64,000 nt of DNA, taken from NCBI GenBank assembly GCA_027324805.1, contig DAHVRZ010000002.1, positions 85,658-149,657 of the forward strand, read 5' to 3'. A program made the position numbers and the translations under genes. This document shows, one piece after another, positions 75 through 52,589 of the stretch. This DNA comes from Candidatus Parcubacteria bacterium. GTDB taxonomy: Bacteria; Patescibacteriota; Minisyncoccia; UBA6257; 2-01-FULL-56-20. The number at the start of each line of letters is the position of its first letter. The stretch's first letter is position 1. The notes under the pieces were generated by a model. That model was given only the letters and a program-made list of their open reading frames with translations, did not search any database and was not told the DNA's origin.

Positions 75-641
75 ATGGAACAAATCAAAGACAATCAACA
101 CGAATCAAAACGAGAACAGAAAAGTGCCGAGCGACAACGCTCCGCAAGAAAAAGATCATTCAACAGGTCGGCGAAGCGCGCGCTGATCATCCTCTTCGTC
201 GCCGTGGGCATATGGGGGTTATGGTACTGGGGTAGCAGCAATTCCTCTCCACAGACAACCCGGGCGCTGGCATTTTCCTGCACGACCGATACGCTCACGA
301 CATTCCACATCCATCCGCATCTCGTGATCACGATCAACGGCCAGGATCAGCAGATCCCGGCGGGGATCGGCAACAGCATCACATGCCTGCACCCAATCCA
401 TACCCACGATACCAGCGGGATGATCCATGTCGAATCGCCGTCGCCCCGCGATTTCACACTCGCCGATTTCTTCGCAGTTTGGGGCAAAACATTCAATCAC
501 AATCAAATTCTCAATTCCGTAGCAGATGCGAGCCATACGATCACGATGACCGTGAACGGCGTTCCGAGCCAGGACTTCGAAGACCTTGTTTTGCGCGACA
601 AAGACCAGATCGTTATTGCCTACGGCCCGACAAAACCATAA
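75..641 (+). CDS. Membrane-anchored hypothetical protein with His-rich motifs (HIHPH, HPIHTHD)
   Basis: ORF of 188 aa with a single N-terminal TM segment and HxHxH-type motifs. It is the first gene of a + strand unit that continues into the DsbA-like gene. No family recognised. Confidence 0.5.
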   Translation: MEQIKDNQHESKREQKSAERQRSARKRSFNRSAKRALIILFVAVGIWGLWYWGSSNSSPQTTRALAFSCTTDTLTTFHIHPHLVITINGQDQQIPAGIGNSITCLHPIHTHDTSGMIHVESPSPRDFTLADFFAVWGKTFNHNQILNSVADASHTITMTVNGVPSQDFEDLVLRDKDQIVIAYGPTKP

Positions 642-664
642 AATAAATAATATTCTTCAAAACC

Positions 665-1414
665 ATGGAACATCACGACACGCACCACGATGAGGCACAA
701 GAACTTTCTCCCGCCGCTCGCCATCGGCCTATAAATGATCGTTTTCTCCCGATCTCCATTCTTGTCGCGGCAATTTTGATCGGGGGAACGATACTTTTTG
801 CAACGCTCTACCGAGGAGGCAGCGTTGCTCCTGCTGGCGCAGCCCAAGCGGCCGTCCCGCCAATAAGCGCCGCTGACGCCGTATTGGGCAACCCGAACGC
901 CCCAGTCACACTCATAGAATACGGCGATTACCAGTGCCCGTTCTGCGGGAGGTTCTTCTCGGAAGCCCAGCCGCAGATTGTGAAAGACTATGTGGATACA
1001 GGAAAGGTAAAAATGGTTTTCCGTAATTTCGCTTTTCTCGGATCGGAATCCGTTGCGGCCGCAGAAGCTGCGGATTGTGCGGGAGACCAGAATAAATTAT
1101 GGGCGTACCACGATGCGCTCTACGCCGGAAAAGTGGCCGATTTCGCGAAAGGCGGCGGCGAGGATGATGGGTTCTTTAATAGGACGTTGTTCCTGAAGAT
1201 TGCCCAGCAAATAAACCTTAACATCCCGACATTCACGAGCTGCATCGATAGCAATAAATATGCAAATCGGGTCGCACAGGAAAAAACGGACGCGGCGGCA
1301 ATCGGCGTGAATTCAACGCCAACCGTCTTTATCAACGGGCAAGAAGTGCTCGGCGCCCAGCCCTATGCGGCATTCAAAACAGTGATCGACCTTGCATTGC
1401 AAAACAGTAAATAA
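665..1414 (+). CDS. DsbA-family thiol:disulfide oxidoreductase (thioredoxin fold, CPFC active site), membrane-anchored
   Basis: The YQCPFCGRFF CxxC motif sits in a DsbA-like context after an N-terminal TM helix. The 249-aa length is typical. Confidence 0.8.
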   Translation: MEHHDTHHDEAQELSPAARHRPINDRFLPISILVAAILIGGTILFATLYRGGSVAPAGAAQAAVPPISAADAVLGNPNAPVTLIEYGDYQCPFCGRFFSEAQPQIVKDYVDTGKVKMVFRNFAFLGSESVAAAEAADCAGDQNKLWAYHDALYAGKVADFAKGGGEDDGFFNRTLFLKIAQQINLNIPTFTSCIDSNKYANRVAQEKTDAAAIGVNSTPTVFINGQEVLGAQPYAAFKTVIDLALQNSK

Positions 1415-1416
1415 CC

Positions 1417-1992
1417 ATGGATGCCGCGCAGAAAAAATCACAAATGGGCGTTTGGAAAGGATTGCGCTACGTATTTGCGAAGATCGGCTATCTCGTTATC
1501 GCATCCATCGCAGCGGCGCTTGCGTTCGCCTTCGCAGTCTGGCTGCCGAATCTTCACCTCGTTGCGAGCACGCTCACACGATCCGACGCGCCTCTTATGT
1601 TGCGGCTGCAACTCCCGGTAACCCTTCTCGGCTCCATCGTCACGAATTTTAGCCCGTTTTCGGCAACTATGATCGTTACCCTCTCCATGCTTCTTGGGAT
1701 TGATACGGCACTCGTCGCATATCACACAAAGCAAAGGCTTGCAGGGAATTTCACTGGCGGCTTTGCCGCCGGAGCGGGTGGCATAGTCGCCGGAGTTCTC
1801 GGCATCGGATGCGCCGCATGCGGCTCCATTGTCGCCATGTCGTTCCTGCCCCTCGTGGGCGGCGCGGGGATTCTTGCGGCATTGCCACTCGGAGGAGGAG
1901 AGTTTGGTGTTCTCGGGATAATCCTTCTTGGCAGTTCTATCGCTATCCTCGCAAAAAAAGCGACGCAACCGCTCATTTGCGTCGAAGCGTAG
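1417..1992 (+). CDS. Polytopic membrane protein with intramembrane CAAC (CxxC) motif; candidate redox partner of the upstream DsbA-like protein
   Basis: The 191-aa ORF has 4-5 predicted TM helices with GIGCAACGS in one helix, and starts 3 nt after the dsbA-like stop. It matches neither DsbB nor VKOR by motif pattern. Confidence 0.55.
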   Translation: MDAAQKKSQMGVWKGLRYVFAKIGYLVIASIAAALAFAFAVWLPNLHLVASTLTRSDAPLMLRLQLPVTLLGSIVTNFSPFSATMIVTLSMLLGIDTALVAYHTKQRLAGNFTGGFAAGAGGIVAGVLGIGCAACGSIVAMSFLPLVGGAGILAALPLGGGEFGVLGIILLGSSIAILAKKATQPLICVEA

Positions 1993-2401: not shown

Positions 2402-2440
2402 GATTACATTATACCCCCTGTGGGTATTTCTGCAAAGCAG
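2402..2440 (-). promoter_or_regulatory. Sigma70-like promoter (TTGCAG-N16-TATAAT) with CsoR-type palindrome ATACCC-CCTGT-GGGTAT (2411..2427) overlapping the spacer and -10; near-leaderless start of DUF302 gene
   Basis: The minus-strand sequence reads TTTGCAGAAATACCCACAGGGGGTATAATGTAATC-ATG. The palindrome has the same arms as the two csoR-region operators. The -10 lies 6 nt from the ATG. Confidence 0.55.
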
Positions 2441-2453
2441 CCCGCAGAGCATA

Positions 2454-3752
2454 TCAGCTACTTATCACCACTCTCGCTACGCTATAAATCTCTTTCAGCG
2501 AATAGTGGGATGTAAAACTGATATTGTTCCCGTTCGCTACATAGGGATCTTGCATGAGATAATTGCCTTTACTCCCGCTCGTGAGGACGACGAAGTGCGT
2601 TCCGCCGAGGGCGTTCATGCCGATAATTATCGGGTGGCCAGCGGCAAGCATCGCGTCAATGACGGTGATCTTGCGCGCGGTGGTCGCTCCCCTCACGCTC
2701 GTGGCTTTCCGCGTGACGGTGACGCCATCCACGCCGATCGTCGCGAGTAGCAAGTCGGGAGAATACGCGGCAAAATTATCCGGGTCCGCATTGATGGTTG
2801 CGGGTGTCACATCCTTATATCCGTAATGCGTGAGCACCATCGCCACAGACGCGATAAGACAACCGGCGCTTGCAAGGGTATATTTCGTTCCATCGAGTGC
2901 ATTGCTCCCCCACGCCGTATCGCGCTGATTATAGTAACAGCCCGATGCGTCGCAGCTCGTTTGGTTCGCGAGCAGCTTTGAACCACCGGCATTCTGGGTG
3001 AAGGTCGAGAAGCTGTTGAGCTCCGCCTGCGCCGCCGCGAGCAGTTTCTGATATGTTGATTCCTGTGATTTTGTTTCTACAAGCAGCTGGCTTTTTGATT
3101 GCTCCGTCACGGCGAGTGATTGTTGTTGCGATGCTAGTGTCTGTTTTTGAAATGTCAGCGTTTCCTGTTTTTGCTTTGATGCAGCCTGTGAATCGGCAAG
3201 GTCGCCTTCCTGCACGCGCAACGTCTGCATTTGATCCTGAACAGCATTCTGCATCTTCAACGTCGCGTTGACGTCATTCCACATCGCAACAAGACTGCCT
3301 GATGAAAGCATCTGCACGATAAGTGGTTTGTCATCAGCTTTCTGAAGGCTTCGCAGATATCCTCCGAGCGCTGCCTGATCCGTATCGATCGTTTGCTTCG
3401 CCATAGTTATCGCCCCGCCCAATTGCTGGATTTGCGCCTGGGTGGTATTGATCTGCAACTGGGTAAGGGCGACCTGCGCCTGCACCTTACTACGCTCAAG
3501 ATCGAGCGCATTAATGGCGGCTTGGAGCGTCTTCTTGTCCGCACCGACTTTCTGAAGCTGCGCCTGGTATGTCGCGATCTCTTGATTAAGAGCGGCAATT
3601 TGCTGATTGTCCGTGCTAATCTGTTGCGCCTGCGTGGAAGTACTGCTCGTACTCGTTGCAGAGGCGATTGCCGCCGCATGGGAAATAGAAATACCCCACA
3701 CGGCTACGGCCATGAGAAATCCAAACCAAATAAAAAGAGATGGCCCACGCAT
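2454..3752 (-). CDS. Secreted coiled-coil protein with C-terminal papain-like C39-type (Peptidase_C39_2-like) cysteine peptidase domain; PcsB-like architecture
   Basis: Signal peptide, then about 250 aa of Q/A/L-rich coiled coil. The C-terminal domain carries SAGCLIASVAMVLTHYGY (catalytic Cys context) and GGTHFVVL (His). Confidence 0.65.
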   Translation of the reverse strand: MRGPSLFIWFGFLMAVAVWGISISHAAAIASATSTSSTSTQAQQISTDNQQIAALNQEIATYQAQLQKVGADKKTLQAAINALDLERSKVQAQVALTQLQINTTQAQIQQLGGAITMAKQTIDTDQAALGGYLRSLQKADDKPLIVQMLSSGSLVAMWNDVNATLKMQNAVQDQMQTLRVQEGDLADSQAASKQKQETLTFQKQTLASQQQSLAVTEQSKSQLLVETKSQESTYQKLLAAAQAELNSFSTFTQNAGGSKLLANQTSCDASGCYYNQRDTAWGSNALDGTKYTLASAGCLIASVAMVLTHYGYKDVTPATINADPDNFAAYSPDLLLATIGVDGVTVTRKATSVRGATTARKITVIDAMLAAGHPIIIGMNALGGTHFVVLTSGSKGNYLMQDPYVANGNNISFTSHYSLKEIYSVARVVISS

Positions 3753-3764
3753 GTTTGTTAACCG

Positions 3765-3941
3765 TTAGCAGCATCCGCCACCTTTTGATTTACGAGGTTG
3801 CTCTTTCTTAGTTAACAGCAGCCGATATTGATCCTTGCATCTCTCGGAATAGAATTGCTTGCCAAATCCTTTTGGATATTCTTGTCCATCTTTGAACTCC
3901 ATCCTGCAGATGGGACACTTTTTCTTGAAAATTTTGAACAT
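3765..3941 (-). CDS. Small Lys-rich zinc-ribbon-like protein (58 aa) ending in GGGCC
   Basis: This is the internal-ATG ORF MFKIFKKKCPICRMEF...GGGCC*. It is AT-rich with atypical codon usage and is wedged between the ICMT-like and PcsB-like genes. Weak support. Confidence 0.3.
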   Translation of the reverse strand: MFKIFKKKCPICRMEFKDGQEYPKGFGKQFYSERCKDQYRLLLTKKEQPRKSKGGGCC

Positions 3942-3955
3942 GTGTTTTTGATATT

Positions 3956-4490
3956 TTATTTCACTGATTTGTCTTTTCGCCTCCACCGCGGAATGAACGC
4001 GGGCGTTTGCGCCGCATAAGCATCCCATTCTCTGCCAAATGCCGCTTGCGCTTCCCTCTCTTCGGTTCGCGCGAGATGCACGTACATCCACAAAAGCACC
4101 GGAAACATGGCAAGCGTGAGAATGGTCGGCCACTGGAACAAGAATCCGAGCATAACGAGTATGAATGCCACGTATTGTGGATGGCGAATGCGGGCATACG
4201 GCCCTGCGGTTGCAAGCGTATGTTCTTTCTGCGCTTTATAGAGGACAGTCCATGCGTCCATTAAGAGGAATATCCCTATGCCGATCAGGATGTAGCTCAG
4301 AATATGGAACGGCCCGAAGTGTGAGCGGAAAACCATACATCTCAGTGAATAACGCGACGATGAATGCGGAGAATGCGCCGAACGATCGCCAATCGCGCGG
4401 CGTCTTCGGTTTTGTGAAGCTGAACGCGAACACGATGAAGATTGCGGAATTGATGATGACGAGCGGCCAGAGGCCATAACTGTTGTCCAT
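3956..4490 (-). pseudogene. Isoprenylcysteine carboxyl methyltransferase (ICMT)/phospholipid methyltransferase family gene split by a frameshift near 4311..4320
   Basis: The N-terminal part is ORF 4236..4490 (WRSFGAFSAFIVALFTEMYGFPLT). The C-terminal part is in another frame within 3956..4501 (GPYARIRHPQYVAFILVMLGFLF, the ICMT signature). The two frames share the DNA around ggcccg at 4311..4316. This is either a real pseudogene or a one-base sequencing indel. Confidence 0.6.
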
Positions 4491-4491
4491 A

Positions 4492-4815
4492 TCAGTGACA
4501 AGAGGAATGATCGTGTTTCATATCATGATGAGTTTCGGCCTTTGAGGATTGCTCATCGTCCGTAATGTGATTATCGTGCAGTACCTCATTGTGCGGCGGT
4601 TTCCGATGCCGCATCATCATGATGACGCACGCCACGAGAAGCACGAAAGCTATGAGCGGTAGGAATAATGCTGCTCCGCCGAACGCCGCGACACCGCCGC
4701 CCAAAAATAGGATGGCGAGAATCGGCACGGCGCAACAGGCGACCATCATCCACATCATTGAGGAGCCGTGGCCACCCTCATGATTGTGGTCACTATTGTT
4801 ACTTTGGTTGTCCAT
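4492..4815 (-). CDS. His-rich small membrane protein (2 TM), possible metal-binding
   Basis: The N-terminus is SDHNHEGGHGS and the C-terminus is HHDMKHDHSSCH, with hydrophobic helices between. The gene sits 1 nt upstream of the ICMT-like gene. Confidence 0.55.
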   Translation of the reverse strand: MDNQSNNSDHNHEGGHGSSMMWMMVACCAVPILAILFLGGGVAAFGGAALFLPLIAFVLLVACVIMMMRHRKPPHNEVLHDNHITDDEQSSKAETHHDMKHDHSSCH

Positions 4816-4847
4816 AGTTTAGTTTGATTAATTTCTTTACCAGACTT

Positions 4848-5321
4848 TTACTGCATGTTCCACGTGAACGTCCTCACTGCTACCCCACCGACGTTGCTTA
4901 CCGTGAGCGTTATCGTCTTTGGCGTCGACGATGGCGCAGGGAACGTAAGCGTGCCGTTGCGATGATGCCCACCTACAGCAGGGCCATCCCATGCGATGGA
5001 TGCAAGTGAGTCGCCACGATCATCGGTCAGTACGGCAACTTTCGTCATATCCATATCGAGACTGCCCATGTGGGTATCGATCCCAAAGTTGAACGTCCAC
5101 GTGCTTGTGCCGGGCGCGAGCGGCTGTGCGATGACTTCCGCCGTACCCTCGGAATTGGTCTGTGATTCGTAAGGCGACGATGCCGTGCCGGGTGCCTGCT
5201 GCGTTTGGCTTGCCGCTCCTCCATATTCCGTAGGCGTGCCCCTCGGTACGCTCAAAGCGTAGAGAAAAAACATCCCGGCAAGGACGGCAAGCCCAATAAG
5301 AGCGATGTTGATTTTCTTCAT
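4848..5321 (-). CDS. Secreted hypothetical protein with Met/His-rich patch (THMGSLDMDM, GGHH)
   Basis: Signal peptide at MKKINIALIGLAVLAGMFF. The motifs loosely resemble CopC-like Met-rich Cu(I) sites, but this is not diagnostic. Confidence 0.5.
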   Translation of the reverse strand: MKKINIALIGLAVLAGMFFLYALSVPRGTPTEYGGAASQTQQAPGTASSPYESQTNSEGTAEVIAQPLAPGTSTWTFNFGIDTHMGSLDMDMTKVAVLTDDRGDSLASIAWDGPAVGGHHRNGTLTFPAPSSTPKTITLTVSNVGGVAVRTFTWNMQ

Positions 5322-5761
5322 ATTGTGCGATGTTTGAATTTCATGATCCGACTGATCATATATGCGATGCCCACGAGGTTGAACGCGATCCCGACCCAGA
5401 AAAGCTGTACTTGGTATGCCCCAATGAATGACGCGAACGCACTCACCCCGAGAACCGGCAAGATGTTCACGAGATAATGGGCGCAGCAGGAGATCATCGC
5501 GCCCGTGGACGTTGTTCCTGTCACGGCAAGCATTTTCCCGCTCGGATCCTTGGTGTGAATCTCGGCCTTCAGATAGCTGTACAACCCGATCTGGATGCCA
5601 AACCCAACCGCGAGACTTCCGAGATAGTACCAGTAACTTGAGAACTGGCTCGCGGCAAATCCAACGCCGGAGATGAGACCGACGACCAGGAAATATGCGC
5701 CGACCAAAGCTAGCGTTGCGGCTGCTCCCTTCGCGATCGATGTGATGACGGTGCGGTTCAT
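5318..5761 (-). CDS. 4-TM membrane protein with CCAHY motif
   Basis: ORF of 147 aa that overlaps the downstream gene by 4 nt. No family recognised. Confidence 0.5.
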   Translation of the reverse strand: MNRTVITSIAKGAAATLALVGAYFLVVGLISGVGFAASQFSSYWYYLGSLAVGFGIQIGLYSYLKAEIHTKDPSGKMLAVTGTTSTGAMISCCAHYLVNILPVLGVSAFASFIGAYQVQLFWVGIAFNLVGIAYMISRIMKFKHRTI

Positions 5762-5762
5762 G

Positions 5763-6389
5763 TTAATTCATCTGCGCGAGTTCGCCCGCGATCTTGTCGT
5801 TGTCGATACCCATGTTTGGGTCGTCGAAGACATAGCGGACGATGCCCTGCTTGTCGATAAGGACGAACGTGTGGCCCGGGTACGAACCGTAATGCATGGA
5901 TGAGTTAACGGTAAGCATGCCGTACTCGTTCGATACGCTTTTGTCTGTGTCAAAGAGTACGGTTGCCGAGGCGAGCTGTGGCATCTTCTGGATCGCGCTT
6001 TGCCAATCCGACGGCTGATCGATCACCACCGAAAGCGCGACGGTATTCGAGCTATTGAGCTGCGGGAGTGCCACCATCTGATTCCAGCACGCCGGGTAGC
6101 ACATGATACCTTCGTTGAAGAACAGCACCACATCTTCCCCCTTCAGACTGTCATTCGTGTACGTCGTGCCGTTCCGGTCTTGAAGCGAGAATTGCGGGGC
6201 TGGTTTGCCGACGAGGTCGTTAGGCGATCCCACCGAAGCGGCTGCGCTCCCCGAATGCATGGGGTCGCCGCCCGCCTGTGGACTGCCGCTTCCGCGACTC
6301 AGCATGTAGATGCCGCCGATAACGAATGCCGCGATAGCGATGATCGCCACAATGGCGGTCACATTAGATTTTTTCTGATAGTTTTTCAT
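5763..6389 (-). CDS. TlpA/ResA-like thiol-disulfide oxidoreductase (redoxin, thioredoxin fold), membrane-anchored
   Basis: The VGKPAPQFSLQDRNG...VVLFFNEGIMCYPACWNQ motif places a CxxxC-type redox site in an AhpC/TSA-redoxin context. The start was moved to the internal MKNYQKK. Confidence 0.75.
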   Translation of the reverse strand: MKNYQKKSNVTAIVAIIAIAAFVIGGIYMLSRGSGSPQAGGDPMHSGSAAASVGSPNDLVGKPAPQFSLQDRNGTTYTNDSLKGEDVVLFFNEGIMCYPACWNQMVALPQLNSSNTVALSVVIDQPSDWQSAIQKMPQLASATVLFDTDKSVSNEYGMLTVNSSMHYGSYPGHTFVLIDKQGIVRYVFDDPNMGIDNDKIAGELAQMN

Positions 6390-6396
6390 GTTGGTT

Positions 6397-7257
6397 TTAT
6401 TTTTCTTTGTTTTGTTTAATTGCCATGGCCGTAAACCAGGCGAGAAGCCCAACGATCACAATCGCCCACACGAACTGCGGCACCCAGCCGATGAAGCGGT
6501 TGAGCGATTGCAAAATTTGCGTAATGAAGATGTCGACATCCACGGCCGTTGCCGAGTATCCCATCGGATTGTTCGCTGCCCATATGAGCGTGAAGGCACC
6601 CATGATGGTGAAGGTAGCTCCCGCTAAGAGGTCAGAGATCCGCGTCTTGAATTCCTTTCCAAACAGGGTGAACGTAAACGGCTTCCGCGCTTCGAAGAGG
6701 CGGTTCGTGAGTTTTGTGCGATCAATGATGGACGCCAAAATGAAGAGTGGCGTCACCATGCCGAGGACGTAGGCCAAGGTGTAGACGATGCCCCATGCGA
6801 AAGAACCCGGAAGCACGGAGAGCGCGAGCGCTCCAGCAAGAACAGGGGCGCAACAGGTCGTCGCGATGCCGGAGAATATGCCGAGGACGTAGACCGATGC
6901 CGCTGTTTCCTTCTCTTTCACTTCAAACTTAGGCTTCCACGATGACGGCATAGGTAATCGCTTCCCGAAAAAAAGTGAGATGCCCAGAGCGAGAAGCAAC
7001 AGACCTACAACCGTAAAGATCTCGTGGTGATAATGCCCGAAGAACGTGCTCAAGGACGAGAATCCCAGCCCGAGCGGCAAGAATATGGTCAGGATGCCGA
7101 GGAAGAAGATAAACGTCATGAGAAATACCTTCCGCCGCGTCTCAAAGATTGAGCCGAAATAGGAGGGCAGAAGAACGGTCACGCAGCAGGGCGCAAAAAG
7201 GGCAGCGATTCCCGCCACGAATGCCGCTATGAGTGATGTGCTGATGAGGAGTTCCAT
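6397..7257 (-). CDS. ccdA: CcdA/DsbD-family transmembrane thiol-disulfide electron transporter
   Basis: Polytopic membrane protein with FAPCCVTVLLP and TTCCAPVLAGAL motifs, the DsbD_2/CcdA-like Cys-in-TM pattern. It is adjacent to the redoxin gene. Confidence 0.7.
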   Translation of the reverse strand: MELLISTSLIAAFVAGIAALFAPCCVTVLLPSYFGSIFETRRKVFLMTFIFFLGILTIFLPLGLGFSSLSTFFGHYHHEIFTVVGLLLLALGISLFFGKRLPMPSSWKPKFEVKEKETAASVYVLGIFSGIATTCCAPVLAGALALSVLPGSFAWGIVYTLAYVLGMVTPLFILASIIDRTKLTNRLFEARKPFTFTLFGKEFKTRISDLLAGATFTIMGAFTLIWAANNPMGYSATAVDVDIFITQILQSLNRFIGWVPQFVWAIVIVGLLAWFTAMAIKQNKEK

Positions 7258-7262
7258 GGTCG

Positions 7263-7463
7263 TTATTGCAACCCACAACCGCTAGGCTGACCGTAGGATG
7301 GGGCTTGGTTTTGCGCTTGCGACGATGGCGCGGCAATCTGATTTTCCTGGGTTACCGCGTTAGCACCGAATGGCCGGAACGCATAGGCCCACGCCGTACC
7401 GACGATGATCACGAAGAGCGCACTACTGATGAACAGCCAGAAATTGTCATTGGTTGGTTTCAT
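7263..7463 (-). CDS. Small membrane-anchored protein ending in C-terminal ...SGCGLQ
   Basis: ORF of 66 aa with an N-terminal TM and a Q/A/S-rich tail. The C-terminal motif is shared with the upstream gene. Confidence 0.45.
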   Translation of the reverse strand: MKPTNDNFWLFISSALFVIIVGTAWAYAFRPFGANAVTQENQIAAPSSQAQNQAPSYGQPSGCGLQ

Positions 7464-7478
7464 GTTTTTTATTTCCGG

Positions 7479-8474
7479 TCATTGCACCCCGCAGCCGCCC
7501 GACGATTGCGTCTGCACCGGAGTGATTTTGTTTTCTATCTGCTGATACCCTTGCGCACTCGAATACGCGGCGCCGAGGACCGCCTTCGGATCCACCGCAC
7601 TCCAGTCTATGCCCTGGCTTTGGAAGTAGGTCGCGAGGGTCATATAGGTATCCGGGAACCAGTAGGAATTCACCGCGAGCGCGGCTTTATACATGTCCGT
7701 TTCCGAGACGCCCTGCGACGCCATGAGCTCGAGGAGGGCGAGCATTGCCATGCCGTGATTGCAGTCCGGGAAGTACGTAGAGTTGCCGCAACACGGGCGA
7801 TAGATATTCTGTGCAACGCGAACGACGAGCGCCTGCTGATCGGCCGTGAGCGTTATGAATTGATGTGCGCTATAGTGCGTCATCGCATCGCCGACCGAAA
7901 GCGTCCATCCGCCAGTCGAAGCAAAGTTCTTCGCGCTGCCGTATTGCGGATTTTGCATCGGACCGCTTGTGAGGATCGGATTGTTATTCCCAAGCCCAAG
8001 CGCCCATAGAAGATTCAGGATGACGCCGGAATTCTGTGGCGTGATGACGAGATCGCTGTTGTCCGTATTATCGAGAAGCGCTTGCATGTCGGGCGACAAC
8101 CCGCCACGCCGTGCGTACAATGCCTCAAATTGCGGCTCGTCGATTACGCCGCTGGAAACCAACTGCTTCCCCAGGTCGCCCCAACGTGCGGGCAACGTCA
8201 CGCCCACCGCCGGGATCACTTTTTCCTGAAGCGCAGAAACTGACGCGGTTTGCGTGGTCGTGGCCGAGGATCCTTTCGCCGAAAAAAGATTCTGACCTCC
8301 TGTTGATCTCTGGCTGCCGACATAAACGAACGCCGAAGCGATAAACAGTGCGGCAGCGAGAATACTAAGCGGCAAAAATAGATCTTTCCGGCCATCTTTT
8401 ACCGCTCCTTCCGGGAGAATATCTTCCGCCGGTTCCGATTCGTGATGATGTGGTTCGTGTTCCATATGATTCAT
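7479..8474 (-). CDS. Membrane-anchored His/Cys-rich protein (N-term HEPHHHE; RPCCGNSTYFPDCNHG) ending in ...SGGCGVQ
   Basis: ORF of 331 aa with a single TM. No family recognised; C-terminal Cys-x-x-x motif. Confidence 0.55.
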   Translation of the reverse strand: MNHMEHEPHHHESEPAEDILPEGAVKDGRKDLFLPLSILAAALFIASAFVYVGSQRSTGGQNLFSAKGSSATTTQTASVSALQEKVIPAVGVTLPARWGDLGKQLVSSGVIDEPQFEALYARRGGLSPDMQALLDNTDNSDLVITPQNSGVILNLLWALGLGNNNPILTSGPMQNPQYGSAKNFASTGGWTLSVGDAMTHYSAHQFITLTADQQALVVRVAQNIYRPCCGNSTYFPDCNHGMAMLALLELMASQGVSETDMYKAALAVNSYWFPDTYMTLATYFQSQGIDWSAVDPKAVLGAAYSSAQGYQQIENKITPVQTQSSGGCGVQ

Positions 8475-8477
8475 GCG

Positions 8478-8969
8478 TTATTCGTCGCAGCACGCGGCGA
8501 GTTTATTGACAAGCTCTTCGAATTGCGAGCTGCCTCTTGCTTCGTCTTTTATTTTCCGACCCGTAACTAGTTTCAATTTCAGCGCCCAAAAGATTGAATA
8601 TACCTTGTAGGCACCCTCAAATGTCTGCTTCGCACGCTGCTTCTCGCCTTCCGACTGCAACTTATTGCCAACCTCGATAAGGCGCATAGTCGTCGCAAGG
8701 AGGTGTTTTGCGATACACCACGTCTCGCCTTCATTTTCCGGCATCAACTGCGCGAGAAATTGTTTGCGTAACTCCCTGATCTCCTGCGCCGTATCGAAAT
8801 ACTCGTCTTTTTTTGTTTTTACACCGGTAAAAACAAAGTGTTCTTCGAGGCTCACGAGATTCATGACGGCAATGCTCAGATCTTCCGTCGTTGAAAGATC
8901 GACGCCCGCTTTCGCCTTGACCGATTCTATTCTTTTGAGGAACTCTTCCAGTGTTGGTTTTGTATTCAT
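8478..8969 (-). CDS. Hypothetical soluble protein (163 aa) ending AACCDE
   Basis: ORF in the tight minus-strand gene string, with no TM. Function unknown. Confidence 0.5.
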   Translation of the reverse strand: MNTKPTLEEFLKRIESVKAKAGVDLSTTEDLSIAVMNLVSLEEHFVFTGVKTKKDEYFDTAQEIRELRKQFLAQLMPENEGETWCIAKHLLATTMRLIEVGNKLQSEGEKQRAKQTFEGAYKVYSIFWALKLKLVTGRKIKDEARGSSQFEELVNKLAACCDE

Positions 8970-9054
8970 GGTAGTTTAATGGAATGATTGCGCACCAAAA
9001 AACCGCATTCCTGCGGTTTATGGCGCTACGAACGACACGGCGAATCTGGTTCGC

Positions 9055-9468
9055 TTAGGCGTTCATAGCGCAAAATAACGACGGATCACGCTTTTCAAGG
9101 AGAGATATCCAGCGATGCTGTTTACGGATGCCGTTCGCCTTCCCTTCGGTAACGATACCCAACCGGCGTTGTGTTATAAATGGCAGATCTGCGACGACAG
9201 AGACTGTAAGCCACGCGAAAACTGCCAATAAAGCCAAAAATGTAAAAGCTAATGAACTTACAATGCCGAGCGATGCCCCAAGGAGCGCGTTGATATGTAT
9301 TGTCGCGAATTGGAATGGGTTCATGCCGTTCACGCATTGCTGGCTCCCGGGAATCGCCGCGAGGCAATTCGCATGATTGCCCGCTCCCATATTGGCCATC
9401 GCAAAGCCGCCCGCCACGAGGGCAAGGACGGCTGTTAGGATGACCATGGTTGCGAGCGCCGATTTCAT
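9055..9468 (-). CDS. Membrane protein with extracytoplasmic Cys pair (HANCLAAIPGSQQC)
   Basis: ORF of 137 aa with a signal/TM segment and an internal TM. It lies directly downstream of csoR. Confidence 0.5.
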   Translation of the reverse strand: MKSALATMVILTAVLALVAGGFAMANMGAGNHANCLAAIPGSQQCVNGMNPFQFATIHINALLGASLGIVSSLAFTFLALLAVFAWLTVSVVADLPFITQRRLGIVTEGKANGIRKQHRWISLLEKRDPSLFCAMNA

Positions 9469-9469
9469 G

Positions 9470-9739
9470 CTATCTTCGTTGTGATAATTTATACACTTTC
9501 AAGATCTCGTCAGCGGCCTTTTTACCATGTCCTGCTTTCATCTGCATCGCTACGTGGGTAGCAAGATGATTCTCAAGGAGCAAGCCCTCAATGCCGGAAA
9601 GCGCCTGCTTGATAGCGGACGACTGCGTAATAACGTCAATACAGTACTTTTCCTCATCGATCATCTTTTCCAGGCCCTTGATCTGGCCTTTTACGATCTG
9701 TAATCGCCGCAGGGCTTTTTTCTTAATAACCTTATTCAT
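9470..9739 (-). CDS. csoR: CsoR/RcnR/FrmR-family (DUF156) metal-sensing transcriptional repressor
   Basis: ALRRLQIVKGQIKGLEKMIDEEKYCIDVITQSSAIKQALSGIEGLLLENHLATHV is a very close match to the family helix bundle. The sensory positions read Y-C ... H-x3-H. The start was placed at the internal MNKVIKKK, giving 89 aa. Confidence 0.8.
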   Translation of the reverse strand: MNKVIKKKALRRLQIVKGQIKGLEKMIDEEKYCIDVITQSSAIKQALSGIEGLLLENHLATHVAMQMKAGHGKKAADEILKVYKLSQRR

Positions 9740-9745
9740 ATCTTC

Positions 9746-9774
9746 ATGATACCCCTCTAGGGTATAAGTGTCAA
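9746..9774 (-). promoter_or_regulatory. Promoter of csoR operon: TTGACA-N17-TATCAT with operator palindrome ATACCC-CTCTA-GGGTAT (about 9749..9765) in the spacer; csoR ATG 6 nt after -10 (leaderless)
   Basis: The minus-strand sequence reads TTGACACTTATACCCTAGAGGGGTATCATGAAGAT-ATG. Coordinates are +/-1 nt. Confidence 0.6.
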
Positions 9775-9800
9775 ATAAACCATCCATAATGATATCCATT

Positions 9801-9813
9801 CCCTATGGTAGGG
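9801..9813. promoter_or_regulatory. Short palindrome CCCTA-TGG-TAGGG between the divergent promoters
   Basis: Seen directly in the intergenic sequence. Possibly an additional half-operator. Confidence 0.3.
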
Positions 9814-9841
9814 TTGACAACATACCCCTGCGGGGTATCAT
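9814..9841 (+). promoter_or_regulatory. Promoter of gene 9905..10246: TTGACA-N16-TATCAT with operator palindrome ATACCCC-TGC-GGGGTAT (9822..9838) in the spacer
   Basis: The sequence reads gggTTGACAacATACCCCTGCGGGGTATCATgg. It is divergent from and architecturally identical to the csoR promoter. Confidence 0.6.
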
Positions 9842-9904
9842 GGAGAGGTAAACGTATTGTGGATACATCAATAATAAAGGTCGTCAACGCAAAAGCAATT
9901 CATT

Positions 9905-10246
9905 ATGGAAGAACATACGCACGAATACGGTCATCACATATTGCTTCGCTGGGTACTCGGCATTCTTATTTTGGTCGTGGTCTTTTGGATGGGCGTCCAA
10001 GTGGGCGAGTTCAGAACCGCCTTCGGATACAGCTACGGAATGTGGCCGGGCATGATGGGGAATAATTACTACGGTGCCACTCCTTATCCTTATGGCTATC
10101 CGATGATGGGAGGATATTATTATGGAGGCCAGACTGCGGGTCCGTCCCAATCTACGACAACCACCGCGCCGACTTACTATTACGGCCCTGGCGGTATGAT
10201 GCAGGGGTATTATCAGAACGCACCACAAACGACCAGCGCAAAGTAG
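9905..10246 (+). CDS. Small membrane protein with His-rich N-terminus (EEHTHEYGHH) and Gly/Tyr/Met/Pro-rich low-complexity C-terminal tail
   Basis: ORF of 113 aa with one TM. The tail reads YGMWPGMMGNNYYG...YPMMGGYYYGG...GGMMQGYY. It is transcribed divergently from csoR from an operator-bearing promoter. Confidence 0.55.
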   Translation: MEEHTHEYGHHILLRWVLGILILVVVFWMGVQVGEFRTAFGYSYGMWPGMMGNNYYGATPYPYGYPMMGGYYYGGQTAGPSQSTTTTAPTYYYGPGGMMQGYYQNAPQTTSAK

Positions 10247-10315: not shown

Positions 10316-10344
10316 AAAAATCCCGCGATGAGCGGGCATTTTTG
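10316..10344. terminator. Bidirectional Rho-independent terminator (A5-TCCCGCGATGAGCGGGCA-T5)
   Basis: A hairpin at 10322..10336 is flanked by A- and T-tracts. It lies between the convergent genes 9905..10246 (+) and 10354..10581 (-). Confidence 0.55.
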
Positions 10345-10353
10345 TTCCTAATT

Positions 10354-10569
10354 TTATTCAATTCCCATCTTATCCAAGATGTGCGCCTCGATTTGGCGTA
10401 TCCGTTCCCTCGTAACTCCGAACGCCCTGCCGGTCTCTTCAAGGGTTCTCGATCGTCCGTCCGCAATGCCGAACCGCAACTCGAAAATCTGCATCTCCCG
10501 CGGGGTTAATTTCAGGACCTTCTTCATAGCCTTATATCGTTCAATGACGGCATCACGATCCCGTTTCAT
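10354..10569 (-). CDS. Stand-alone sigma-70 region 4 (HTH) domain protein, ~71 aa
   Basis: [48 protein letters not shown] is a classic sigma region 4.2 HTH. No regions 2 or 3 are present. A TATAAT at 10580..10585 overlaps the first ATG, so the mRNA is probably leaderless and starts at the second ATG (MKRDRD). Confidence 0.6.
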
Positions 10570-10597
10570 ATTGTTTATCATTATAGATTTATTTTAA

Positions 10598-10648
10598 AAA
10601 TTGGCTACTTTCTAACTACATCCAATAGCATCCGAAAGTAGCCAATTT
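10598..10648 (-). terminator. 15-bp perfect inverted repeat AAATTGGCTACTTTC / GAAAGTAGCCAATTT (21-nt spacer) overlapping the dcm stop codon, followed by T-run; terminator or protein-binding site
   Basis: Seen directly in the sequence. The large loop is atypical for an intrinsic terminator. Confidence 0.35.
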
Positions 10649-11636
10649 ATCCGCCAACGTCCCGTATCGCTCTCATCACTTCCGCCGCCACCTGCGGCAC
10701 AATGGCATTGCCCAAGGCTTTGATTCGCTCTACTCGGTGCTGTTTTACGGTGAGCTCGCATCCGTCCAGCCGGGCGGGAAGCCCATCATCCACTCGACAA
10801 AGATCGGTTGCAGCTTCAAGCCAGTCCGACCCTGCACCACCTCGCCAAAATTTGATTTTCCCCGGTCCGTATAGGAAGCCCTGCTGTCCTGCGCTTTGGG
10901 CGTAGGCAGGATTTCGTAGAGCCGCGGCAATATTTGCCCGAGCCGCGCGCCGTGCCGATCGCCAGTCCTCTTTGACTGCCGGAAAAATTGTCCGTTCCCG
11001 TAATGAACGGTCTTCGTGTATTCCGCGCCAACAACCTCGCTTGCGACCGGCGTGGGAAGCATCGTGGGCAACGATCCAGACCCGATCCCTCCGGTGCGGG
11101 GCTTCGACGGCACAAGCTGGAATAACAAACGATTGGACTTCGTAGTTTTGATCTTCCAGGTCAGATAGCACTTGGTCGAGCGCCAGGTTGATGATGCCAG
11201 CAACGTTCTCGCCAATGATCCAATGGGGCCGCGTTTCTTTGATAACTCTGAGCATTTCAGGCCAGAGATAACGGTCATCCAGTTTGCCTCGGCGCTTTCC
11301 GGCGAAACTGAAAGGCTGGCAAGGAAAGCCACCCGTGAGGAGGTCAAGTTGATAGCCTGCGGCAAGTTTATGCTGTGCTTGCTCCCCTTTTTCATTTGAG
11401 AGCTTTTGAGATTCGGTGTGAAGCTGTCCGACGCTGTGGGCGTCGGCAACAAGTCGTTCGATTGATAACTCCCTGATGTCATTGTAGATTTTCGCATGTT
11501 TGAAATTCTTTTTTATTATTGCTTGGCAGAATTTGTTGTTATCACAGAATCCGACGTTCTCATACTTGTCGCCCCACACCCATTGCGCGGCGAGTGCAAA
11601 TCCGCCGATGCCGGAAAAAAGATCGAGGTGTTTCAT
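10647..11636 (-). CDS. dcm: DNA (cytosine-5)-methyltransferase
   Basis: C5-MTase motifs are present: DLFSGIGG (I), GGFPCQPFS (IV), ENV (VI) and LGNAIVPQV (X). The 329-aa length is typical. No restriction endonuclease or Vsr gene is nearby. Confidence 0.85.
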   Translation of the reverse strand: MKHLDLFSGIGGFALAAQWVWGDKYENVGFCDNNKFCQAIIKKNFKHAKIYNDIRELSIERLVADAHSVGQLHTESQKLSNEKGEQAQHKLAAGYQLDLLTGGFPCQPFSFAGKRRGKLDDRYLWPEMLRVIKETRPHWIIGENVAGIINLALDQVLSDLEDQNYEVQSFVIPACAVEAPHRRDRVWIVAHDASHAGRKRGCWRGIHEDRSLRERTIFPAVKEDWRSARRAARANIAAALRNPAYAQSAGQQGFLYGPGKIKFWRGGAGSDWLEAATDLCRVDDGLPARLDGCELTVKQHRVERIKALGNAIVPQVAAEVMRAIRDVGG

Positions 11637-17162: not shown

Positions 17163-20100
17163 TTAGGCACTCGCTTCGGCCATTTCTTCCTCTTCCTGGA
17201 TCTCTCCTTCGTGGAGGATCACATCGGGCGAAAGGTCCTGCTTACCCGCAGGGATGAGCCGCCCGATAATGACATTTTCCTTGAGACCGCGAAGTTTATC
17301 GATCTTGCCCTCAATGGCGGCCTTCACGAGCACGCGCGAGGTATCCTGGAAGGATGCCGCAGAAAGGAACGACTCTGCAGAAAGCGCGATGCGCGTAATG
17401 CCAAGGAGCGTCTCATCCGCCTTCGCAGGCTTGCCGCCTTCCTTCTTGATCAGGCGGTTCACCTCAAGGAAGCGGGACTTCTCGACGATCTCGCCCATCA
17501 CAAAGTCCGGCGCGTCGCCCGCCTCGCGGATCTTCACGCGCGAGAACATCTGCCGCACGATCATTTCAATATGCTTGTTGTTGATGGAAGCGCCTTCCGA
17601 AGCGTAGATCTTCTGCACCTCGTTCACGATATACCGGCCCACCGCCGTCATTCCCCTGTGCTCGTAGAGCTCATGGATGTCGAGGTTACCTTCCGAAAGA
17701 CGGTCACCCTTCGTCACCTTGTCGCCCGCCTGCATGAAGAGCACCGTGCCGCGGGGTACGCTCACGTCCGTCGCCTTGCCTTTCTTGCCCTCGGGGATGA
17801 AGCGCACCACCTTGAGCGTGCCCTTCTCCTCGATCTTGTCCACTACCCCGTCGAAGGGAGCCAGGATGGCTCGTCCCTTCGGGGCACGGGTCTCGAAGAT
17901 CTCCTCCACGCGAGGGAGACCGTGCGTGATGTCGGCACCGGCGACGCCTCCCTGGTGGAAGGTACGCATGGTGAGCTGGGTGCCCGGTTCGCCGATGGAC
18001 TGTGCAGCGAGCACGCCCACCGCAGTACCCAGGGCCACCTTCTTGTTGCTGCTAAGGTCCAAACCATAACATTTGGCACAAATACCGTAGAAGGTCTTGC
18101 AGGTGATCGGCGAACGCACGATGACGCTCTCCACCTTTTCAGCCGCATCGATCGCCTCGGCGATCTCGTGGTCGATCGTTTCGCCCGCGCGGATGAGTAT
18201 CTTGTTCCCCGACTTCACGTCATCAAGCACCGTGCGGGAGAAAAGCCTTGACGCAAAGCTCTGATTGAACTCCTTGCCGTCGGCGCGCGAGATCTCGATG
18301 CCTTCCTTCGTGTGGCAGTCATCCTCGCGGATCGTAAGGTCCTGCGCAACATCCACGAGGCGTCGCGTAAGATAGCCGGCCTGTGCGGTCTTGAGCGCCG
18401 TGTCGGTCGTACCTTTGCGGGCGGCGTGGGTCATAATGAAGTACTCCAGAATGGAAAGGCCTTCTTTGAACGATGCCTTGATCGGGAGCTCGATCGTCTC
18501 GCCTTTCGGGTTCTGCACGAGACCCTTCATACCCATCATCTGAATCGGCTGGGACCATGAACCGCGGGACCCGGAATTGACGATCTGATAGATCGAGTTG
18601 TCCTCGGGGAAGATGTCCGCGATGAGCTTTGCGAGATCGTTCTTCGTCTTCTCCCACACGCTGATCACGCGCGAGCGGCGCTCGATCGGCGTAAGCAGAC
18701 CTTCCGCGTACTGTTCGTGAATGAGCTCAACCTCTTTGTCCGCTTTCGCCACCATTTCCTTCTTCTGCGGAGGAACGATGAGATCCGCTATTGCCCATGT
18801 GATGCCGGAAGTGGTCGCCATGTCATATCCGAGCTGTTTCACCCTGTCGATGACATCGCGCGTGGCGTCCATGCCGTGCAATTCGAACACGCGGGCGAGG
18901 ATCGCGTTGAGCTTCTTCTTCGTCACGAGATCGTTGTAGAACGGCACGGTACCGTCGAGCGCTTTGTTGAAGATAAGGCGGCCTGCGGTCGTCTCGACGT
19001 CGATCTCCCGTATCCTGAGCGGCGTATGAAGCGTAATCTGTCCGAAATGATACGCGAGCATTACCTCGTCGTAGTCGGTGAACCAGCGGATTGCAGCCCC
19101 TTCGGGAAGCTTCTCTATGCGCGTCATATAGTAGCTGCCGAGCACAACATCATTCCACGGGCCGGGAATGAGGTCACCCGTCGCCGGCTTCAGGAGATTC
19201 TTGCCTGCGGACATAATGTCGCGGGCCTCCTCTTGTGCCGCATCGGAGAGCGGGAGATGCACGGCCATCTGGTCGCCGTCGAAGTCCGCGTTGAATGCGG
19301 CGCAGACGAGCGGCGGAAGCTTGAGCGCAAGACCTTCAACGAGCTGCGGACGGAATGCCTGCACCGAAAGACGGTGGAGCGTCGGCGCGCGATTGAGGAG
19401 CACGTGCTTGTTTTTGATGATCTCTTCGAGGATGGCGAGCACTTCGGATGTGTGCTCTTCCATGAAGCGGGATGCGGAGCGCATGTTGTGCGCAAGTCCG
19501 CGCTTGATGATCTCGCTGATGACGAACGGGCGGAAAAGTTCGAGGCCCATGCGCTTCGGGATGCCCATCTCGTCGATCTTAAGCTTCGGACCGACCACGA
19601 TCACGGAGCGGCCGGAATAATCCACGCGTTTGCCGAGCAGGTTCTGACGGAAGCGGCCCTGTTTGCCCTTGAGCATGTCGGCGAGCGAACGGAGCGGACG
19701 GCGCTGTGCGGACATCTGCTGGGTGCCGAAGCGCGCCGAGTTGTCGATGAGCGCGTCCACCGCCTCCTGGAGCATGCGCTTCTCGTTGCGAACGATGACG
19801 TCCGGCGCCTTGATCTCAAGGAGTTTCTTCAGGCGGTTATTGCGGTTGATGACGCGGCGATAAAGGTCGTTGAGGTCCGAGGTCGCATAGCGGCCGCCGT
19901 CGAGCGCCACCATCGGACGAAGGTCCGGCGGGAGCACCGGGAGCATGGTCATGATCATCCATTCCGGGCGCTGGCCGTTGCGGACCATGGACTTGAACAT
20001 CTTGAGGCGGCGGAGCAGCTTCGACTGCGCCATCGGGTCGCGGGCGCCTTCGAGTTCCTTCTCGATTCCGACGATCTCCTTCTTGAGGTCCATCTTGTCG

Positions 20101-51308: not shown

Positions 51309-52589
51309 TTATGCTCCGATTATTTGTTTTCCGACGTATTTCTGCAGTACCTCCGGAATCTCGACGGCGCCTTCGGGCGTCTGATAATTCTCAAGGATGG
51401 CGATAAAGATGCGCGGCGACGGGAGCGCGGTGTTGTTGAGCATGTAGACGAACTTGCGCTCGCCCGTCTTCGGATCGGCATATTTGACGTTCAGGCGGCG
51501 CGACTGCCAATCGGTGAAGTTACTCGCCGATCCGGTCTCCGCCCAGCGGTTCATGCCCGGAAGCCACGCCTCGATATCAAACGCGCGATATTTTCCCGCG
51601 CTCATGTCGCCGGAACAGATCGCAAGCCGGCGGTACGGCAGGCCGAGCTCTTCATGCATCTCGCCGGAAATGCCGGTCATCTCGTCCTGCAGTTTATTCG
51701 CAAGCTCGATATCCGCGGGTGCGAGCACCACTTGTTCCACCTTCATGAATTCGTGTACGCGATAAAGTCCCTTCACGTCTCTGCTATAGCTCCCGATCTC
51801 GCTTCGGTAGCACTGGCTGTAACCGCACAGCTTGAGCGGAAGCTTTTCCGCCGGCACCGTTTCGTCGGCATAGTATGCGAGGAGGGACGGCTCGGCCGTT
51901 CCCACGAGGAACTTCTGATCCTTGCTCTTCTCCCCTGTTACCTCCTTGTCGGAGGTCGCCACCTGGTAGATCTCATCCACCTCGGGATCGTACTCGGTCC
52001 CTTTGAAATATCCCGATCCGAAAAGCGGGAATCCTTTGACGAGCGTCGGCGGGATCATGGGCGCAAATCCCTTCTCTATCAGTTTATTGAGGGCATACAT
52101 CATGATACCCATCTGAAGAAGAACGCCGTCATTCTTCACATAATAGCCGCGGAAGCCGCCCACCTTCGTACCGCGGTCGAAGTCGAGGATATCGAGCGAA
52201 GTGCCGAGCTCGACATGCGTCTTCGGTGTGAAGTCGAATTTCCTTGGCTCGCCCCAATGATAAATATCCTTATTGTCCTCATCGCTCTTCCCCACCGGCG
52301 TATCGGGCGAGATCACGTTCGGCACGCGCGCCATGAGTTCGGCAAATCTCTGTTCGATCGGCTTCAGTTTTTCCTCCTGTTCTTTGAATTTTTCCTTGAG
52401 GGCCGCACCGGTCTCGCGATCTTTCGCCTTCTTCTGTTCCGCGCGGACCGCTTCCGCCGCCGCCATGAGTTCGCGGCGTTCGGCATCAACCTTCAGAAGC
52501 TCGTCAATGATCGCGGGGTCTATATTCTTTTTCGCGGCGGCGTCCCTCACCGCATCCGCATTCTCGCGGATGAATTTGATGTCCAGCAT
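51309..52589 (-). CDS. serS: Seryl-tRNA synthetase
   Basis: An N-terminal coiled-coil arm and class II motifs. The start is at MLDIKFIREN. Confidence 0.9.
   Translation of the reverse strand: MLDIKFIRENADAVRDAAAKKNIDPAIIDELLKVDAERRELMAAAEAVRAEQKKAKDRETGAALKEKFKEQEEKLKPIEQRFAELMARVPNVISPDTPVGKSDEDNKDIYHWGEPRKFDFTPKTHVELGTSLDILDFDRGTKVGGFRGYYVKNDGVLLQMGIMMYALNKLIEKGFAPMIPPTLVKGFPLFGSGYFKGTEYDPEVDEIYQVATSDKEVTGEKSKDQKFLVGTAEPSLLAYYADETVPAEKLPLKLCGYSQCYRSEIGSYSRDVKGLYRVHEFMKVEQVVLAPADIELANKLQDEMTGISGEMHEELGLPYRRLAICSGDMSAGKYRAFDIEAWLPGMNRWAETGSASNFTDWQSRRLNVKYADPKTGERKFVYMLNNTALPSPRIFIAILENYQTPEGAVEIPEVLQKYVGKQIIGA

Follow-up and report, generated by a model that had tools for sequence, protein, structure and literature searches.

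A putative CsoR-type regulon with operators in the promoter spacers of a Candidatus Parcubacteria locus

The CsoR box of Corynebacterium glutamicum is ATACCCCnnnGGGGTAT, and that of Bradyrhizobium liaoningense, TATACCCCTACCGGGTATA, overlaps the -10 elements of the divergent csoR-cueA pair; rapid amplification of cDNA ends (RACE) put the transcription start of B. liaoningense csoR on the A of its start codon (PMC5057107). In Streptomyces the CsoR target is ATATACCCCTNAGGGGTATAT and any base swap in its TAC/GTA dyad abolishes binding, and S. lividans has three such operators, those of csoR, copZA1 and copZA2 (PMC3902906). The Thermus CsoR recognizes the operator CCCCACCCCACCTGGGGTGGGG (PMC10318464), and its x-C-H-H ligand set (sequence similarity network cluster 17) is classed as a copper-sensor variant; other members of the family are marked by different residues, RcnR requiring His3, FrmR Pro2 and CstR two Cys (PMC8643695). 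A comparable system is described here in a 64,000-nucleotide stretch of a Candidatus Parcubacteria genome (contig DAHVRZ010000002.1, positions 85,658 to 149,657; the whole stretch is called the window). Three palindromic boxes lie in the promoters of a csoR-headed gene array, a DUF302 gene and a gene for a 113-amino-acid (aa) membrane protein. They are very probably the operators of the CsoR-family repressor encoded at 9470..9739.

Direct reading of the sequence gives box 1 at 2411..2427 (ATACCC-CCTGT-GGGTAT; ATACCCCCTGTGGGTAT), box 2, the operator of the csoR promoter, at 9749..9765 (ATACCC-CTCTA-GGGTAT; ATACCCCTCTAGGGTAT) and box 3 at 9822..9838 (ATACCCC-TGC-GGGGTAT; ATACCCCTGCGGGGTAT). These are the palindromes that an earlier sequence-only reading had listed, and they differ from its description in minor details of coordinate and spacing. 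A TAC-N9-GTA frame is common to all three 17-bp boxes. The pattern ATACCC-N3-5-GGGTAT has exactly three matches in the 64 kb, where 100 dinucleotide-preserving shuffles averaged 0.00, which upholds the claim of a non-random motif, and the looser TACCC-N3-7-GGGTA finds the same three only, against 0.07 expected. A position weight matrix (PWM) made from 78 homologous sites of other genomes scored boxes 1, 2 and 3 at 25.2, 22.6 and 23.5 bits respectively. When the whole window was scanned with this matrix for further or weaker operators, the next best site reached 6.7 bits, with shuffle maxima of 0.9-15.5. Since no other site rises above the shuffle range, the window has no operators of this kind besides the three boxes. 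The possibility that the two divergent boxes loop cooperatively was considered and set aside, as their spacing differs between loci: 73 bp here, 44 bp in L003, 50 bp in L016 and 115 bp in L011 (L-numbers denote related loci, introduced below).

A sigma-70 promoter scan covered the first 14 kb and used the E. coli consensus. Box positions and scan agree in placing a boxed promoter ahead of the DUF302 gene, the csoR-headed array and the divergent membrane protein gene, as the earlier reading had it (Table 1). Each box makes up the whole -35/-10 spacer and the final TAT of the box is the first half of the -10 hexamer. The location inside the spacer, also read correctly before, is thus true of all three promoters, and it is kept in 78 of 80 Patescibacteria loci. 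The ATG codons of csoR (9739) and of the DUF302 gene (2401, from which homologs align at residue 1) lie exactly 6 nt 3' of their -10 elements. At this distance the usual transcription start falls on the A of the ATG, and both mRNAs are predicted to be leaderless. The 6-nt distance at two of the three promoters had been recognized already; what can be added is that a gap of 6-9 nt is conserved among the relatives. The third gene starts at 9905 and would have a leader of about 57 nt, counted from the expected transcription start. A tiny open reading frame (ORF), ATGGAGAGGTAA at 9840, was considered as a leaderless start for this promoter and rejected, since it overlaps with the -10 hexamer and precedes the point where transcription should start. 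The leader itself (9848..9904, plus strand) contains a stretch, ATAAAGGTCG(T/C)CAAC, that is kept in L003, the sole homologous locus.

Initiation signals elsewhere in the window fit this picture. No GGAGG-like sequence was found upstream of the array genes, and a Shine-Dalgarno-like core at -18..-5 is present in only 4 of 67 crude gene calls across the window. The genome appears not to rely on Shine-Dalgarno initiation, which makes leaderless starts more plausible. A-rich sequence typically precedes start codons across the window. Another good promoter of leaderless type, TTGAAA-18-TATGAT-6-ATG, lies ahead of the gene at 51309..52589 (minus strand).

The same arrangement recurs across the phylum. 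A scan with one genome per species yielded 535 relatives, and the best 80 loci were examined. Nearly every locus has the common pattern TTGACA-N3-5-ATACCCC-N3-GGGGTAT-nAT-N6-9-ATG upstream of csoR. A box lies within 60 nt of the csoR start in 78 of the 80 loci, and in all 78 its right arm opens a TAnnnT -10 hexamer. A -35 element with at least 4 of 6 matches is found at 16-18 nt in 68 of them, and the gap from the -10 to the start codon is 6 nt in 39 loci, 7 in 8, 8 in 20 and 9 in 5 (72 of 78 at 6-9 nt). The information content is about 2 bits over both arms and collapses in the flanks. The strict box is rare, with only 86 copies in 756 kb of loci, almost all at csoR. The extra boxes share this promoter geometry. 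They precede P1B-ATPase genes in L009, L011 and probably L006/L007 and L067, a second csoR paralog in L012, which has His-rich and ICMT-like genes behind it, and small membrane proteins in L015 and L016. In L081 (about 3400..3460) and L087 (3430..3470) a non-palindromic G-tract box, TAGGGGGAGGG(A/G)GTA, replaces the palindrome in the same slot between TTGAC(A/G) and the -10, with the 6-nt gap to the ATG kept. These two loci represent a diverged CsoR sub-lineage; the L081 CsoR is 46% identical and still C-H-H.

It is highly improbable that the palindromes are not regulator sites at all, but chance products of GC-rich spacers, DNA or RNA hairpins, or the sites of another protein. Perfect inverted repeats can form hairpins, and CsoR binding to the boxes is a prediction. 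However, zero boxes are expected by chance, and the boxes lie upstream of the predicted transcription start, hence outside the RNA. They also accompany csoR in 78 of 80 species-level loci while the flanks diverge, and they are identical to footprinted CsoR boxes.

The adjacent protein had been proposed as the regulator of the boxes, and this assignment is supported, with a refinement as to the ligands. The 89-aa protein belongs to PF02583 (Trns_repr_metal; E=4.1e-23, 82 bits against a cut-off of 22.8, residues 6-83). A phmmer search against PDB sequences matched 10 family members, and the best solved relatives are Cu(I)-CsoRs: those of M. tuberculosis (2hh7, E 1e-13), Geobacillus (4m1p, E 1.6e-13), S. 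lividans (4adz, E 2e-12) and T. thermophilus (3aai, E 4e-11) precede InrS, FrmR and CstR-like chains (E 2e-6 or worse). Cys33, His58 and His62 align to the M. tuberculosis ligands C36, H61 and C65. The ligands are therefore C-H-H and not the canonical C-H-C of Cu(I)-CsoRs, the Z position being His in 119 of 120 homologs. Tyr32 and Glu78 align to the allosteric second shell of M. tuberculosis CsoR, Y35 and E81, which links Cu binding to release from DNA, and the Tyr/Glu pair is likewise kept in 119 of 120; the full pattern, Y-C-H-H with Glu at C+45, is present in 119 of the 120 best database homologs. The marks of the other family members are missing. Where CstR has two Cys, the window protein and 111 of 119 homologs have only one. 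The N-terminus is MNKV, and in the family residues 2-3 vary, with no conserved His among them, in contrast to RcnR. Residue 2 is Asn here (E, K, D or N in homologs) and not the Pro of FrmR.

The conserved PF02583 start is ATG 9739, giving the 89-aa length of most homologs. An identical public protein (P0001), present on 12 contigs, is 109 aa long from ATG 9799, upstream of the promoter and the box. This indicates a probable over-extended gene call in the database entry, because the reading frame from 9799 would cross the promoter and the 89-aa form is the one conserved.

All three boxes have the features of the published type 2 CsoR operator, namely a G/C-tract pseudopalindrome, a TAC-N9-GTA dyad and promoter overlap, and they are putative operators of that type. 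The earlier assignment to the CsoR/RcnR-family operators is thereby narrowed to the footprinted type 2 boxes of C. glutamicum, Streptomyces and B. liaoningense. The RcnR operator is of type 1 (TACT-G6-N-AGTA), which the window boxes are not. The closest systems by operator are those of C. glutamicum and B. liaoningense (ATACCCCnnnGGGGTAT, TATACCCnnnnnGGGTATA), where the same box, -10 overlap, autoregulation and divergent promoters are found. Their CsoRs have C-H-C ligands and control a copper ATPase directly, whereas the present one is C-H-H and its local targets are DUF302, an operon of thiol-redox and unknown proteins, and a Met/Tyr-rich membrane protein, in a Patescibacterium. S. lividans resembles the window in its three-operator regulon, type 2 consensus and TAC-N9-GTA dyad, and its R-L-x-R and Gln DNA-contact residues have counterparts in R11/R12-L13 and Q39. 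It differs in an N-terminal extension of CsoR, C-H-C ligands and copZA operon targets, and the available part of the source (PMC3902906) reports no leaderless geometry. Boxes, placement and leaderless geometry all have experimental precedents, since the same features come from the work on Streptomyces, C. glutamicum and B. liaoningense.

Thermus TTHA1719 (3aai) has the same x-C-H-H set with a His at the Z position and is an accepted copper sensor with copA/copZ neighbours (PMC8643695). It differs from the window protein in its operator (CCCCACCCCACCTGGGGTGGGG, not TAC-N9-GTA) and in an extra His5. The shared His may be convergent, because the phmmer match to the Thermus protein (E 4e-11) is weaker than those to the M. 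tuberculosis and Geobacillus CsoRs. E. coli RcnR, FrmR and S. aureus CstR have the PF02583 fold family in common with the window protein, and RcnR is also C-H-H at X-Y-Z. The window protein differs from these three in lacking His3 and Pro2, in its single Cys, in its type 2 operator and in the copper P1B-ATPase neighbours of its family. In the window system, then, ligands like those of Thermus are paired with an operator like that of Corynebacterium and Streptomyces. Of 17 papers that mention both CsoR and Patescibacteria, the ten listed are surveys or deal with other subjects, judged by title and abstract.

The effector was considered from the genes that accompany csoR. A P-type ATPase with the DKTGT motif is encoded about 3 kb or less downstream of csoR in 34 of the 80 loci, and it is usually the gene right after csoR. 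Ten of these have CPC...YN...M(A/S)xSS, most with an N-terminal GMxCxxC domain, and are of CopA type. The other 24 have CPH and YN: 18 with MSxST (CopB type), five with MSASS and one with neither, and most of the 24 have N-termini that are His-rich or contain YxCPMHP (HMBD). In the established P1B classification the CopA and CopB types are copper-exporter classes, and the CopB-type pumps of the csoR loci are taken here to be copper pumps. Cu(I) is the best-supported candidate effector, favoured by the residue pattern and the family link to CopA/CopB-type ATPases. Persulfide is disfavoured because of the single Cys, and an RcnR-type Ni/Co site because there is no His3, although the response may extend to further metals.

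Several points weigh against the reading of a CsoR-controlled, copper-responsive regulon. First, no P1B-ATPase was found in the 64-kb window by tblastn with 37 large ORFs downstream of csoR in relatives (34 DKTGT ATPases) or by motif scans, and no CopZ either, leaving the local regulon without a canonical effector; linkage to copper efflux genes, absent from the window, is seen at family level as a CopA/CopB-type ATPase in the 34 of 80 loci and in further ones. Matches to GDGIND and CPCAL in the window were rejected as an ATPase, as they are on different strands and CPCAL lies inside a fused rpoBC ORF. Second, the Z ligand is His and not Cys, which makes metal selectivity uncertain, and the Thermus C-H-H protein, reported to bind Cu, Zn, Cd and other metals, responded to several metals in vitro, as cited in PMC5057107. 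Third, DUF302 also occurs in CstR-type sulfur modules (PMC6305408). Fourth, the promoter calls rest on the E. coli consensus, and the third target, with its leader of about 57 nt, has no leaderless start. Finally, DNA binding, copper response, transcription starts and operon extent are all deduced from sequence for this organism and its phylum.

A repressor and operators as described, with an effector that is not, or not only, copper (a broad Ni/Co/Zn sensor, or a thiol-reactive species connected with the operon's extracytoplasmic redox genes) would draw on several of these points, namely the missing copA and copZ, the metals reported to bind Thermus CsoR and the DUF302 proteins of CsoR-family-regulated sulfur modules, together with the C-H-H set common to the X-Y-Z positions of RcnR and an operon rich in thiol-redox proteins. 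It is nevertheless unlikely. The lack of His3 and Pro2 leaves neither an RcnR-type six-coordinate site nor an FrmR cross-link, and with the single Cys of 111 of 119 homologs a Cys-Cys bridge of the CstR kind cannot form. The second-shell Tyr/Glu pair that is typical of Cu-CsoRs is invariant, the operator is of type 2 (CsoR) and not type 1 (RcnR), and the ATPases linked to the family are of CopA/CopB type and carry HMA or HMBD domains, with no link to RcnA, NiCoT or sulfur genes.

With Cu(I) as the preferred effector, the following mechanism can be proposed. Characterized CsoR homologs are tetramers, two of which bind per operator. In the absence of metal, apo-CsoR would occupy each TAC-N9-GTA box, and the bound repressor, covering the spacer together with three bases at the start of the -10, would block RNA polymerase at all three promoters. 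Cu(I) would then bind at the subunit interface on Cys33, His58' and His62', and the Tyr32/Glu78 second shell would relay the signal to lower DNA affinity. This would derepress csoR with a same-strand array of about 7.7 kb, the DUF302 gene from its own promoter, and the monocistronic gene of the Met/Tyr-rich membrane protein. The csoR and DUF302 transcripts would start at, or within 1-2 bases of, the A of the ATG. On this reading the system is an ordinary CsoR switch that regulates itself through operators placed in the promoter spacer, found here in Patescibacteria and in the C-H-H ligand variant.

Table 1. Promoters and genes of the predicted CsoR regulon in the window
Feature	Position	Strand	Evidence or remark
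csoR, 89 aa, x-C33-H58-H62 with Y32 and E78	9470..9739	-	PF02583, alignment, PDB matches
PcsoR, TTGACA-17-TATCAT	9774..9746	-	11/12 matches; top-ranked in first 14 kb with divergent promoter
Divergent promoter, TTGACA-16-TATCAT	9814..9841	+	11/12 matches
P(DUF302), TTGCAG-16-TATAAT or TTTGCA-17-TATAAT	2436..2408	-	10/12 matches
113-aa membrane protein: His-rich N-terminus, one transmembrane helix, Met/Tyr/Gly-rich outer tail	9905..10246	+	
137-aa membrane protein, two extracytoplasmic Cys	9055..9468	-	tblastn: in 12 csoR loci
163-aa cytoplasmic protein, invariant C85, H89, C-terminal CC-x-E	8478..8969	-	alignment
331-aa protein: His-rich N-terminus, one transmembrane helix, extracytoplasmic domain, GGCGV tail	7479..8474	-	
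66-aa membrane protein ending SGCGLQ	7263..7463	-	homologs in L001-L003
CcdA/DsbD-type thiol-disulfide transporter	6397..7257	-	PF02683 E=9.5e-13; in 18 csoR loci
Membrane-anchored AhpC/TSA-Redoxin (TlpA-like)	5763..6389	-	PF00578 E=5.4e-15; in 14 csoR loci
Distal genes, tightly packed	3765..5761	-	
147-aa membrane protein	5318..5761	-	
157-aa secreted protein	4848..5321	-	
107-aa His-rich membrane protein	4492..4815	-	
ICMT/PEMT-like gene, frame-disrupted	3956..4490 (split frames, 3956..4511)	-	
58-aa Cys-rich protein	3765..3941	-	
Secreted coiled-coil / C39-like peptidase gene	2454..3752	-	PF13529 E=3.2e-7; 12 nt after preceding gene
DUF302 gene, 129 aa	2012..2401	-	PF03625 E=1.8e-25

The genes from 9739 to 2012 are all on the minus strand. 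Their junctions are short or overlap, and no strong terminator lies between genes before a terminator-like hairpin and T-run at 1984..1961, after the DUF302 gene. Four small membrane or secreted proteins of the array are rich in Cys, His and Met. The first five families of the array, from the 137-aa protein through CcdA/redoxin, are found again downstream of csoR in 10-20 of the 80 loci. The 137-aa protein has no Pfam or NCBIfam match; a gene of about 138 aa follows csoR in L081, L085, L086 and L087, and the L081 copy is a 28%-identical homolog. The 66-aa and 331-aa proteins share a tail motif (GCGxQ / GGCGV). The C39-like peptidase gene is possibly read through from PcsoR. In the ICMT-like gene, residues 1-64 of the L010 homolog match frame -3 and residues 100-219 frame -1, with about 35 residues missing; the split is either a pseudogene or an assembly error. 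For ten unassigned window proteins nothing credible was found in Pfam (E up to 10) or NCBIfam.

The other two targets differ in their conservation. DUF302 genes lie near csoR in L004, L057 and L074, and directly 3' of the 331-aa homolog in L086. None of the DUF302 homologs of L004, L057 and L074 has its own box in the 80 nt upstream, and the dedicated boxed DUF302 promoter appears to be particular to the window. The gene of the 113-aa protein is monocistronic, with a terminator-like hairpin at 10322..10336, and its homolog in L003 (77% identity) likewise has a box of its own, in the same promoter arrangement. Converging on the DUF302 terminator is a gene trio without a CsoR box (75..1992, plus strand), which encodes a 188-aa His-rich secreted protein, a DsbA-like thioredoxin and a 191-aa membrane protein with CxxC in a transmembrane segment. 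The same three genes are found near csoR in 9-13 other loci. The earlier description of a small regulon therefore holds for the three boxed promoters, but the regulon is better seen as a variant of a conserved phylum-wide csoR island, which includes a copper ATPase in at least 34 of 80 loci and none in the window.

The 331-aa family has more than 6800 homologs and no Pfam domain, with an invariant RPCCGN..FPDCNHGMAM and the C-terminal GGCGV. Its AlphaFold2 (AF2) model has a predicted local distance difference test (pLDDT) score of 78.5 and a confident core of 161 residues at 90 or above, and a Foldseek search of the PDB with this model gave no match with E below 2. For each of five sampled distant homologs (56-61% identity; loci L081-L087) the gene belongs to a csoR cluster, and a copper P1B-ATPase gene is close by. 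In four of the clusters csoR comes first, followed by the ~138-aa gene, a ~160-aa gene, the 331-aa family, optional CcdA/redoxin/DUF302 and the ATPase; in three of the four, DUF1573 and a 259-aa gene stand between the ~138-aa and ~160-aa genes. The fifth cluster, L083, has csoR immediately after the 331-aa gene. The 163-aa family has 2807 homologs, no Pfam domain and a mean column identity of 72%. Its AF2 model (pLDDT 61.7) is of low confidence and unfit for structure search. The 163-aa protein is unusually conserved, being 81% identical in L081, where CsoR is 46% identical. Synteny and regulon membership point to a link of the 331-aa, 163-aa and partner families to copper homeostasis.

Two other features of the window concern transcription. 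A single 2250-aa ORF at 17163..23915 (minus strand) is an in-frame rpoB-rpoC fusion (beta plus beta'). A 75-aa ORF at 10354..10581 (minus strand) consists of a sigma-70 region 4 domain alone (PF04545, E=1.7e-15) and adjoins a Dcm-type cytosine methylase gene (10647..11636).

Three points are of modest interest: the phylum-wide promoter/operator/leaderless module, an ATPase missing from the local regulon, and uncharacterized families beside csoR. The findings provide a confident and experimentally tractable regulatory assignment, one repressor and one 17-bp box at three promoters, in a phylum with almost no characterized transcriptional regulation. They also expose gene-call errors, such as the 109-aa csoR entry, and, through regulon membership and synteny, connect DUF302 with copper homeostasis, as well as three large families of uncharacterized proteins. 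The -35/box/-10/ATG module, kept in about 80 species, suggests a portable copper-inducible leaderless expression cassette for Patescibacteria genetics. More tentatively, and with the odds somewhat against it, the csoR cluster could represent an undescribed Patescibacteria-wide copper-defence machinery, made of a 137-aa, 163-aa and 331-aa core with a CcdA/redoxin relay and DUF302. CcdA and a redoxin under copper control recall the periplasmic disulfide isomerisation of copper tolerance (Dsb/Scs systems). If this were true, the machinery, which in this organism is controlled by CsoR and has no ATPase linked to it, may serve to deal with envelope copper or copper-damaged thiols, and not in cytoplasmic efflux.

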